Source: a virus. Taken from it: 64,000 bases of DNA. The notes beneath the pieces are model-generated. The model saw only the letters and a program-made list of their open reading frames with translations. It was not told where the DNA came from and did no database searches. Where the stretch lies: positions 46,396 through 110,395 of IMG/VR virus record IMGVR_UViG_3300046007_003718. The stretch is one strand, 5' to 3'. Shown in pieces: positions 9,208-9,451 of the stretch. Every line of letters starts with the position of its first letter. Position 1 is the first letter of the stretch. The position numbers were made by a program, and so were the translations under genes.

Positions 9208-9235
9208 ATTATAGACGGTTCCACAATCAAGTCAA
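9208..9235 (-). promoter_or_regulatory. promoter TTGACT-16-TATAAT, predicted +1 at or near G1 of the tRNA-like RNA
   Basis: 6 nt separate the -10 from 9201. Confidence 0.65.
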
Positions 9236-9451
9236 AGGTAGGCTTGACGTAACAATGCCCGCTCCCTGCTCACCCGTCACCGACAACCGATTCCTTTAGT
9301 TTACTTATTATTAGTATAAATGGCTCTCGCGCCTAACGTCCCATATTGGTTGTTAGGATTTCCCGACCTACCAATCGGTTTCTTACGGAGATTCCTCCAC
9401 CCCACTAGGTCAAGAGTGGTAGCCCTCGCCTAGTAGGTCGTGAGAACCGCT
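9213..9451 (-). ncRNA. putative ~240-nt structured RNA released by the hammerhead
   Basis: 5' end (9451-9438) pairs with 3' end (9226-9213); several internal hairpins; no minus-strand ORF in the track. Confidence 0.55.

Follow-up and report, generated by a model that had tools for sequence, protein, structure and literature searches.

What does a stretch without open reading frames (ORFs) do in the middle of a tightly packed row of phage genes? The question is raised by a noncoding feature at positions 9213-9451, minus strand, of a 64,000-nucleotide (nt) stretch of DNA (the window), which is part of the 110-kb IMG/VR virus record IMGVR_UViG_3300046007_003718. The record is about 70% complete. 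Its portal protein shares about 40% identity with the portal proteins of cluster C mycobacteriophages and of Gordonia phage Skog, and nearly identical DNA was found in many lake-water metagenomes; the source is an uncultured aquatic phage. The initial annotation had described the feature as an ORF-free stretch in a densely coding region, and this was borne out: the surrounding genes are all on the minus strand and leave little space between them. All features described below are read on this strand. The same annotation proposed a single noncoding RNA (ncRNA) of about 240 nt, closed by an outer stem and probably pseudoknotted. It was silent on two flanking processing elements that are the key to the anatomy of the locus, namely a hammerhead ribozyme directly upstream, whose cut site is the 5' end of the RNA, and a tRNA mimic directly downstream. 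The explanation that we favour, with doubt and confidence evenly balanced, is that the RNA released from between them acts in trans as a stable early ncRNA that binds a host or phage factor.

The type I hammerhead ribozyme (9446..9495, read 9495..9446) was recognized with the Rfam model RF00163. All 45 model positions (1-45) were aligned, and the score of 29 bits corresponded to an E-value of 7.5e-5 over 1 kb in a permissive scan of 8800-9800 and of 2e-6 over the whole record. The catalytic core CUGACGA...GAAA...GUC is complete. It is surrounded by an open stem I of 6 base pairs (bp) and two capped stems, stem II GUCC/GGAC and stem III ACGCC/GGCGU, and the motif occurs only once in the 110-kb record. 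Judged from this core, the scissile bond should lie between C9452 and A9451, and the downstream RNA should start with A9451. The predicted cut site coincides with the upper boundary that the initial annotation had set for the feature and with the start of the structured region.

The hammerhead is preceded by a 56-amino acid (aa) ORF (9476..9646, read 9646..9476), upstream of which a promoter-like sequence TTGCAT-17-TATGCT (9705..9677) was read by eye. This ORF reads into the ribozyme: its last codons (RSDES, window 9476-9490) are at the same time stem I and core, and its UGA stop codon (9478..9476) sits in loop II. Therefore, translation and ribozyme folding must compete. In one of the relatives described below (the L004 type), an unrelated upstream ORF likewise ends with RSDES, because the reading frames of both proteins enter hammerhead stem I and core.

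Relatives of the cassette made up of the hammerhead, the RNA and the tRNA mimic were collected by exact-pattern scans of IMG/VR and JGI metagenomes. Beyond the window only three distinct ones were found: L036, the L003 type (L003 and the identical L037 and L038) and the L004 type (L004 and the identical L002, L034 and L035). Hammerhead and tRNA mimic are present in all four variants. The L036 cassette is 96.7% identical to that of the window, as compared with 78-85% in the flanks. In the L003 type the hammerhead and the 5' domain are 87% and the tRNA-mimic block 84.6% identical (gaps counted), against 68-79% in the flanks. The L004 type is 88% identical in the hammerhead and 85% in the 3' module plus tRNA mimic, and in the rest of the 6.5 kb compared two short segments align only, at 66-72%. 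Taking into account that the cassette is more similar than its flanks and that neighbouring small ORFs are swapped between lineages, the conserved unit is the RNA cassette rather than the nearby genes. Within the hammerhead, no core position differs among the four variants, the loops vary (the stem III tetraloop is GAGA, GUGA or UACG), and L003 carries a compensatory C-G to U-A change in stem I and another C-G to U-A change of this kind in stem III.

Searches for additional relatives returned little. A BLAST search of 50,697 phage records with the cassette gave no match, and exact-pattern scans with 17-mer and 15-mer words yielded, beyond the known relatives, chance matches only. A flanking 171-aa protein, for which 11 homologues were found, led to nothing new in viral contigs, whether it was used singly or as an alignment of homologues, and the portal-protein search returned the same contigs only. 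The pattern of the tRNA mimic matched coding sequences by chance in genome contigs and the known loci only in viral contigs.

To what extent is the RNA following the cut site structured? Folding of a 261-nt stretch gave -87.4 kcal/mol on the minus strand (z -3.07, with 0 of 200 dinucleotide shuffles folding as well), and the plus strand had a z of -1.38. Like the folding beyond the shuffles, the G-U pairs mark the minus strand as that of the RNA. The first 132 nt (9320..9451, read 9451..9320) form a structured 5' domain with a z of -5.39 versus dinucleotide shuffles. In its minimum-energy fold a closing helix P1 (9448..9439 with 9331..9322; GGUUCUC/GAGAGCC plus CG/CG) encloses four hairpins, A (9437..9401), B (9398..9387), C (9378..9363) and D (9357..9332). 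An identical minimum-energy fold was obtained for the window, L036 and L003, and 99.2% of the cells in these three sequences are paired. Three pairs are compensatory, all of them in hairpin D (CCUAAC/GUUAGG), five pairs in P1 and hairpin A are retained through one-sided changes, and the single break turns a U-G pair into G-G. When the partners were slid by 1-3 columns, pairing fell to 37-52%, and the observed values were reached by only 25 of 500 shuffles. With three sequences this covariation is supportive, not conclusive. Loops and junctions of the domain are invariant between the window and L003. The loops of hairpins A (CUACC) and C (GGUAG) are complementary, both invariant, and a kissing contact between them is possible. 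A 34-codon frame lying inside the domain was ruled out as a coding sequence, its changes being the compensatory ones.

These results divide the initial annotation along the length of the RNA. All of the helices that it quoted are readable in the minus-strand sequence of 9213-9451. Three of them, the long hairpin, GGAG/CUCC and CCUAAC/GUUAGG, belong to the fold common to the window, L036 and L003, and the last of them is the one carrying all three compensatory changes. The claim of a structured ncRNA thus stands for the first 132 nt, which fold far better than shuffles and have some support from covariation, and falls for a single closed fold of 240 nt, the 3' part folding like random sequence (z +0.56). 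The helices ascribed to that part were judged by eye from the alignments and fared poorly. The outer closing stem retains no more than 4 bp, and a U-to-C change in L003 improves P1 and breaks this stem. For the 8-bp long-range pair AACCGAUU/AAUCGGUU the AACCGAUU partner is absent in L004 and mismatched in L003, and the pair competes with hairpin C. The GUGACGG/UUGUUAC and GUCAAG-CCUACC-UUUGAC hairpins occur in the window and L036 only and are absent or replaced in L003 and L004. The same two sequences alone have the proposed CCUACC/GGUAGG pseudoknot, in which an A-to-G loop change in L036 keeps a G-U pair, and the idea of two alternative conformations found no support in the relatives. The statement that the element matched no known family was confirmed: no Rfam 15 family was matched at its gathering score in the window, nor at E<=10 when a 251-nt stretch was searched alone. 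The cassette RNA belongs to no catalogued RNA family.

The role of the hammerhead can be approached through its occurrence elsewhere. A pattern defining its subtype (stem II GUCC/GGAC, stem III GCC-N4-GGC) matched 58 IMG/VR loci. Of the 51 distinct contexts that do not belong to this cassette, about half have a start codon preceded by a ribosome-binding site (RBS) 21-51 nt past the cut site; other contexts have an ATG at a similar distance with no recognizable RBS. At one locus (L053:7528-7675, minus strand) the same subtype is found about 40 nt upstream of a tRNA gene, which scores 38.8 bits, over the Rfam cut-off, and whose anticodon could not be assigned by ARAGORN. A sibling of the subtype, L062, reaches 36.4 bits on RF00163. 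Since start codons or a tRNA gene follow soon after the cut, the usual job of this subtype is generally the making of the 5' end of whatever comes downstream, in line with the proposal made for prophage hammerheads (PMC3088659). The present cassette, with its long noncoding fold after the hammerhead, is an unusual case. As a side observation, the subtype (L046-L100) looks like a widespread natural insulator of 5' untranslated regions. Short BLAST matches to the hammerhead core were also noticed in unannotated intergenic DNA of Streptomyces phage Wentworth (MH019216.1:52862-52888) and Agrobacterium phage OLIVR1 (MT234338.1:3965-3992), and these may be unannotated hammerheads in cultured phages.

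The layout with a start codon soon after the cut is that of a transcript insulator, and it lends weight to a purely cis-acting role. In such a scheme the hammerhead would merely separate the upstream mRNA, and the 5'-OH together with the P1 domain would guard the precursor of tRNA mimic and next gene, itself a product of read-through, against 5'-dependent decay, and the RNA would have no function of its own. That prophage hammerheads flanking genes have been proposed to process long transcripts (PMC3088659) points in the same direction. So does the composition of the L004 type, in which the conserved hammerhead and the conserved 3' module are separated by a different sequence of about 125-165 nt: here the 5' domain has been replaced by an unrelated stable structure (z -3.97). 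Several observations are difficult to reconcile with mere protection. Loops and junctions stay constant between window and L003 while the helices change by compensation, the cassette is better conserved than the genes that it would serve (the downstream ORF is not conserved), and a five-helix domain of 132 nt far exceeds the needs of a protective hairpin. On balance we regard the cis-acting scheme as rather unlikely, though it has to be taken seriously.

The middle domain of the L004 type had no Rfam match at E<=10 and no match to the covariance model built on the window type. From 587 kb of loci with hammerheads, this model (R1) returned the three sequences it was built on and no others; neither 55 other hammerhead loci nor L004 contained a match. 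As a non-homologous domain stands between conserved modules in the L004 type, the middle module is exchangeable. An extension of the favoured explanation would see in the locus a natural self-processing cassette of three parts: a hammerhead forming the 5' end, a tRNA mimic forming the 3' end, and between them an exchangeable effector particular to each lineage, such as a decoy that engages a host protein of defence or RNA handling, with an overlap between P1 and stem I serving as a switch that traps the product or gates cleavage. In this full form we consider the proposal unlikely.

The overlap itself consists of the bases GGU, which are common to P1 (GGUUCUC) and to the 3' strand of hammerhead stem I (AGCGGU). 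Since these three bases are shared, P1 could replace stem I after the cut. It might also be imagined that the 5' domain senses a ligand or factor and controls cleavage through this 3-nt overlap, which would make the element a natural allosteric hammerhead. In favour of such a device, P1 and stem I cannot both be complete at once, and in the L004 type, too, the helix predicted to close the domain takes bases of stem I. The domain has no evident aptamer-like pocket and matches no riboswitch family, however, and the sensing role would have to be assigned to each of two unrelated domains. The overlap moreover rests on energy predictions, and the U-to-C change of L003, which improves both helices, does not discriminate. 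We therefore hold allosteric control to be very improbable.

Downstream of the 132-nt domain the RNA continues into an AU-rich linker (9297..9319) that tolerates insertions: 3 nt in L036, a block of 60-odd nt with its own hairpin in L003, and insertions at 9311-9316 in contigs from RNA libraries. The inserted block of L003 (L003:2960-3060, minus strand) contains a strong hairpin UGGUG...CACCA inside GAGCG...CGCUC. This block suggests that additional RNA modules dock in the linker. The linker is followed by a conserved 23-nt block, AAGGAAUCGGUUGUCGGUGACGG (9274..9296, read 9296..9274), which contains UCGGU twice, does not vary among the window, L036 and L004, and has 2 changes in L003. Judged by complementarity, 9225..9214 is a possible pairing partner of this block (CGGU/ACCG, a tandem G-A, then C-G). 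Both strands of the CGGU/ACCG pairing are invariant, and the segment between them shows no excess stability. That segment includes a variable part (9236..9273), which in the window holds the GUGACGG/UUGUUAC and GUCAAG-CCUACC-UUUGAC hairpins and in L003 and L004 consists of other sequence.

Could the conserved block be the beginning of a tiny protein gene, with AAAGGA as RBS, UUG as start codon and a product starting MSVTGEQ..., so that the supposed RNA would be partly a leader? An open frame of 14-27 codons does start at the same UUG in all four variants, and the one difference between the window and L036 that falls inside it is synonymous. The peptides, however, share only their first 4-7 residues and then differ in length and sequence, and the L003 frame enters the tRNA mimic. 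Furthermore, the first 26 nt are invariant and show no synonymous change, a pattern of RNA or DNA conservation and not of coding. A gene at this position is thus highly improbable.

The lower end of the interval flagged in the initial annotation overlaps a promoter-like site of the sigma-70 type, TTGACT-16-TATAAT (9208..9235, read 9235..9208). With 11 of 12 matches it is the best such site in 15 kb, and it is positioned for a transcription start at or beside the first base of the tRNA mimic. A second conserved word of 18 nt, UGUGGAACCGUCUAUAAU (9225..9208), constitutes the spacer and the -10 hexamer of this site in the window, L036 and L004; it is invariant in L003 and L004, and L036 has a C for the first U. 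Each of the two conserved words is unique in the genome. One may therefore ask whether only the first 132 nt or so are functional RNA, and whether 9296..9208 controls the tRNA-mimic gene at the DNA level, as a promoter combined with an upstream factor-binding site whose half-sites GACGG and CCGUC match. The placement of the promoter-like site to start at base 1 of the mimic speaks for this possibility, as do a 3' module that folds no better than shuffles, the uniqueness of its conserved words in the genome and the freedom of the sequence between them to vary. L003 speaks against it. This variant lacks the -35 hexamer, and a leader shortened by 3 nt would place the transcription start inside the acceptor stem; nonetheless it keeps the 18-nt word and, with 2 changes, the upstream block. 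Since both words are kept without a -35 hexamer, the promoter cannot be the whole explanation for them. A contig from an RNA library crosses the -35 hexamer to 9220, which is a weak point in the same sense. Control at the DNA level alone is, in our estimate, distinctly unlikely.

The tRNA mimic (9107..9202, read 9202..9107; 96 nt) was found by ARAGORN as 'tRNA-Cys(aca)' and characterized further by comparative folding. The ARAGORN drawing has a good acceptor stem, a perfect T arm, a mismatched anticodon stem and a weak D stem. The acceptor stem of 7 bp has G1-U72 in the window and G1-C72 in L004, the T arm GCGGG-UUCGACU-CCCGC is perfectly paired, and the D region has a GG. According to comparative folding, the anticodon arm is replaced by a bulged hairpin of 10-13 bp with a 4-nt GACG loop; the lower part of this hairpin varies but remains paired in three different sequences, and no change occurs in the tip CACAAG-GACG-CUUG. 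Thus, among the hallmarks of tRNA, acceptor stem, T arm and D-loop GG are present and the anticodon loop of 7 nt on a 5-bp stem is missing. On RF00005 the mimic scored 20-23 bits in the relatives, below the gathering cut-off of 29, and no match was obtained in the record of the window at E<=0.01; real tRNAs of the relatives score 51-74 bits. The latter include an array of about 11 canonical tRNA genes located about 70 kb from the cassette (G001:C1:17836-22926, with equivalents in G002 and G003), which was not seen in the window's own record, probably since that part is missing.

Other identities of the tRNA-shaped element were rejected. Against transfer-messenger RNA (tmRNA, RF00023) speak the alignment of the T arm alone (18.5 bits versus 47), the absence of an ARAGORN tmRNA, a third acceptor pair that is C-G and not G3-U70, and the lack of a plausible tag frame. 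A Y RNA or YrlA acting with Ro was dismissed, no TROVE domain having been found in three records that are 57-82% complete and no Rfam Y-RNA match having been obtained, and repair linked to RtcB was dropped as no RtcB domain was found in the same records. RNAduplex comparison of the RNA with the tRNA mimic gave only meaningless long-loop duplexes, close to shuffles. Features of an RNase P substrate are present: an intact coaxial stack of 7+5 bp, the T loop and, in three of the four variants, a U at position -1. No CCA is encoded in the mimic. A CCA-adding enzyme of 636 aa is encoded elsewhere in the window (61968-63878, minus strand), with PolyA_pol head, RNA-binding, HD and tRNA_NucTran2_2 domains and about 170 further C-terminal residues that have no Pfam match.

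The combination of these elements suggests a path of expression for the cassette. An early promoter would drive the 56-aa ORF that runs into the hammerhead, and the hammerhead would cut after C9452, so that the mRNA would end with a 2',3'-cyclic phosphate and the RNA beginning with A9451 would carry a 5'-OH. The freed RNA would open with the compact 132-nt domain of P1 and four hairpins. After the cut, the replacement of stem I by P1 described above may hold the product. From here the RNA would run on through the linker and the conserved block to the tRNA mimic, at the 5' side of which RNase P would cut and so release an RNA of about 250 nt. The near-consensus internal promoter, present in three of the four variants, would also make the tRNA mimic alone. 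L003 lacks a usable promoter, and its tRNA mimic must therefore come from read-through RNA. In this path the motifs, the fold of the 132-nt domain, the conservation and the exchange of modules are seen in the sequences, and we infer cleavage, processing by RNase P, stability and any action in trans.

Hints of expression came from two RNA libraries, one from seawater and one from a salt marsh, each of which yielded a single short contig confined to the RNA (9220-9382 and 9281-9440). Both carry L036-like differences, and one of them is the contig that passes through the -35 hexamer. As a sign of expression they are weak. Gaps in the cover of the stretch by the RNA libraries, and the habitats of runs with a low share, were left out of account.

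Several points weigh against a trans-acting RNA of this kind. The hammerhead, at 29 bits, is under the Rfam gathering cut-off of 34. Only four distinct sequences were available in the collections reached, and most of the paired columns are invariant. The 3' 90 nt or so (about 9300..9213) fold no better than shuffles, with a z of +0.56 for the last 87 nt or so and of -1.28 in L004, and this 3' third holds the region's best promoter-like site, so its conservation may be at the level of DNA. The replacement of the middle domain in L004 fits the notion that any stable structure will do as well as that of a swappable effector. The contigs from the RNA libraries show neither ends nor strand, DNA carry-over is possible, and the runs were themselves found by searching with this very stretch.

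The genes next to the cassette are less constant than the cassette itself. About 20 nt past the tRNA mimic a strong RBS, AAAGGAGG, introduces a Cys-rich ORF of 78 aa (8846..9082), which begins MCGCGCS, contains CCCTCGTC near its end and has no Pfam or PHROG match. It lies outside the conserved cassette: it is absent in L036 and replaced by other small ORFs, also containing Cys, in L003 and L004. The only neighbouring gene kept beside the cassette in all lineages encodes a PHROG 2355-like protein (window 8312-8827, minus strand); its position is upstream of the cassette in L004 and downstream of it in the other three variants.

How does the cassette compare with known systems? Closest to it are the phage hammerheads and the theta ribozymes that neighbour phage tRNAs. 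Type I hammerheads of phages and prophages have been proposed to divide long transcripts of phages into units (Perreault et al. 2011, PMC3088659). The present ribozyme resembles them (RF00163) in its full catalytic core, in its three stems with stem I open and in its phage setting. It differs from them in its product, which is a structured noncoding domain of 132 nt followed by a tRNA mimic, and not an mRNA with a short leader. Theta ribozymes, minimal ribozymes of the hepatitis delta virus (HDV)-like type, adjoin phage tRNA genes (Kienbeck et al. 2024, PMC10879173), and here too a small self-cleaving ribozyme of a tailed phage and a tRNA-shaped RNA would set RNA ends without host endonucleases. 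Theta ribozymes, however, belong to the HDV-like type; they adjoin the 3' end of genuine tRNAs, which are often suppressors, and remove the trailer (PMC10879173). In the present case the ribozyme is a hammerhead located about 250 nt ahead of a tRNA-shaped RNA that lacks an anticodon, with a separate structured RNA in between.

The purpose of bacterial and phage hammerheads is a long-standing open question. The locus bears on it in that the predicted product of the ribozyme is a discrete folded RNA with defined ends and not a message, is conserved above its neighbours and is paired with an anticodon-less tRNA mimic. It also offers a small, concrete system, with a construct of about 400 nt and two natural variants of the domain. 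Should the middle domain prove to be an effector, the cassette would represent a new class of phage early ncRNA and a natural counterpart of the engineered expression units in which an RNA is flanked by a ribozyme and a tRNA. If the domain is only a stability element, the locus would document how phages insulate early transcripts.

The tRNA cluster of phage T4 contains two stable RNAs, species 1 and 2, whose function is not known. The cassette RNA resembles them as a phage-encoded, tRNA-linked and presumably processed stable RNA, and differs in having no sequence or Rfam relation to them, in lying about 70 kb from the tRNA array of the relatives and in using a ribozyme. Parallels in arrangement are also found outside phages. 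In MALAT1/mascRNA the 3' end of an ncRNA is made by RNase P at an adjoining tRNA-like structure, and in engineered guide-RNA cassettes of the ribozyme-RNA-tRNA type the 5' end is made by a self-cleaving ribozyme. Both end-forming elements are present in the phage cassette, where we infer the cleavage by RNase P. Two features set it apart from the mascRNA type, namely the internal promoter between RNA and tRNA mimic in three of the four variants, and the conservation of the mimic itself. Since the tRNA mimic is the most conserved part of the cassette, it is more than a processing handle.

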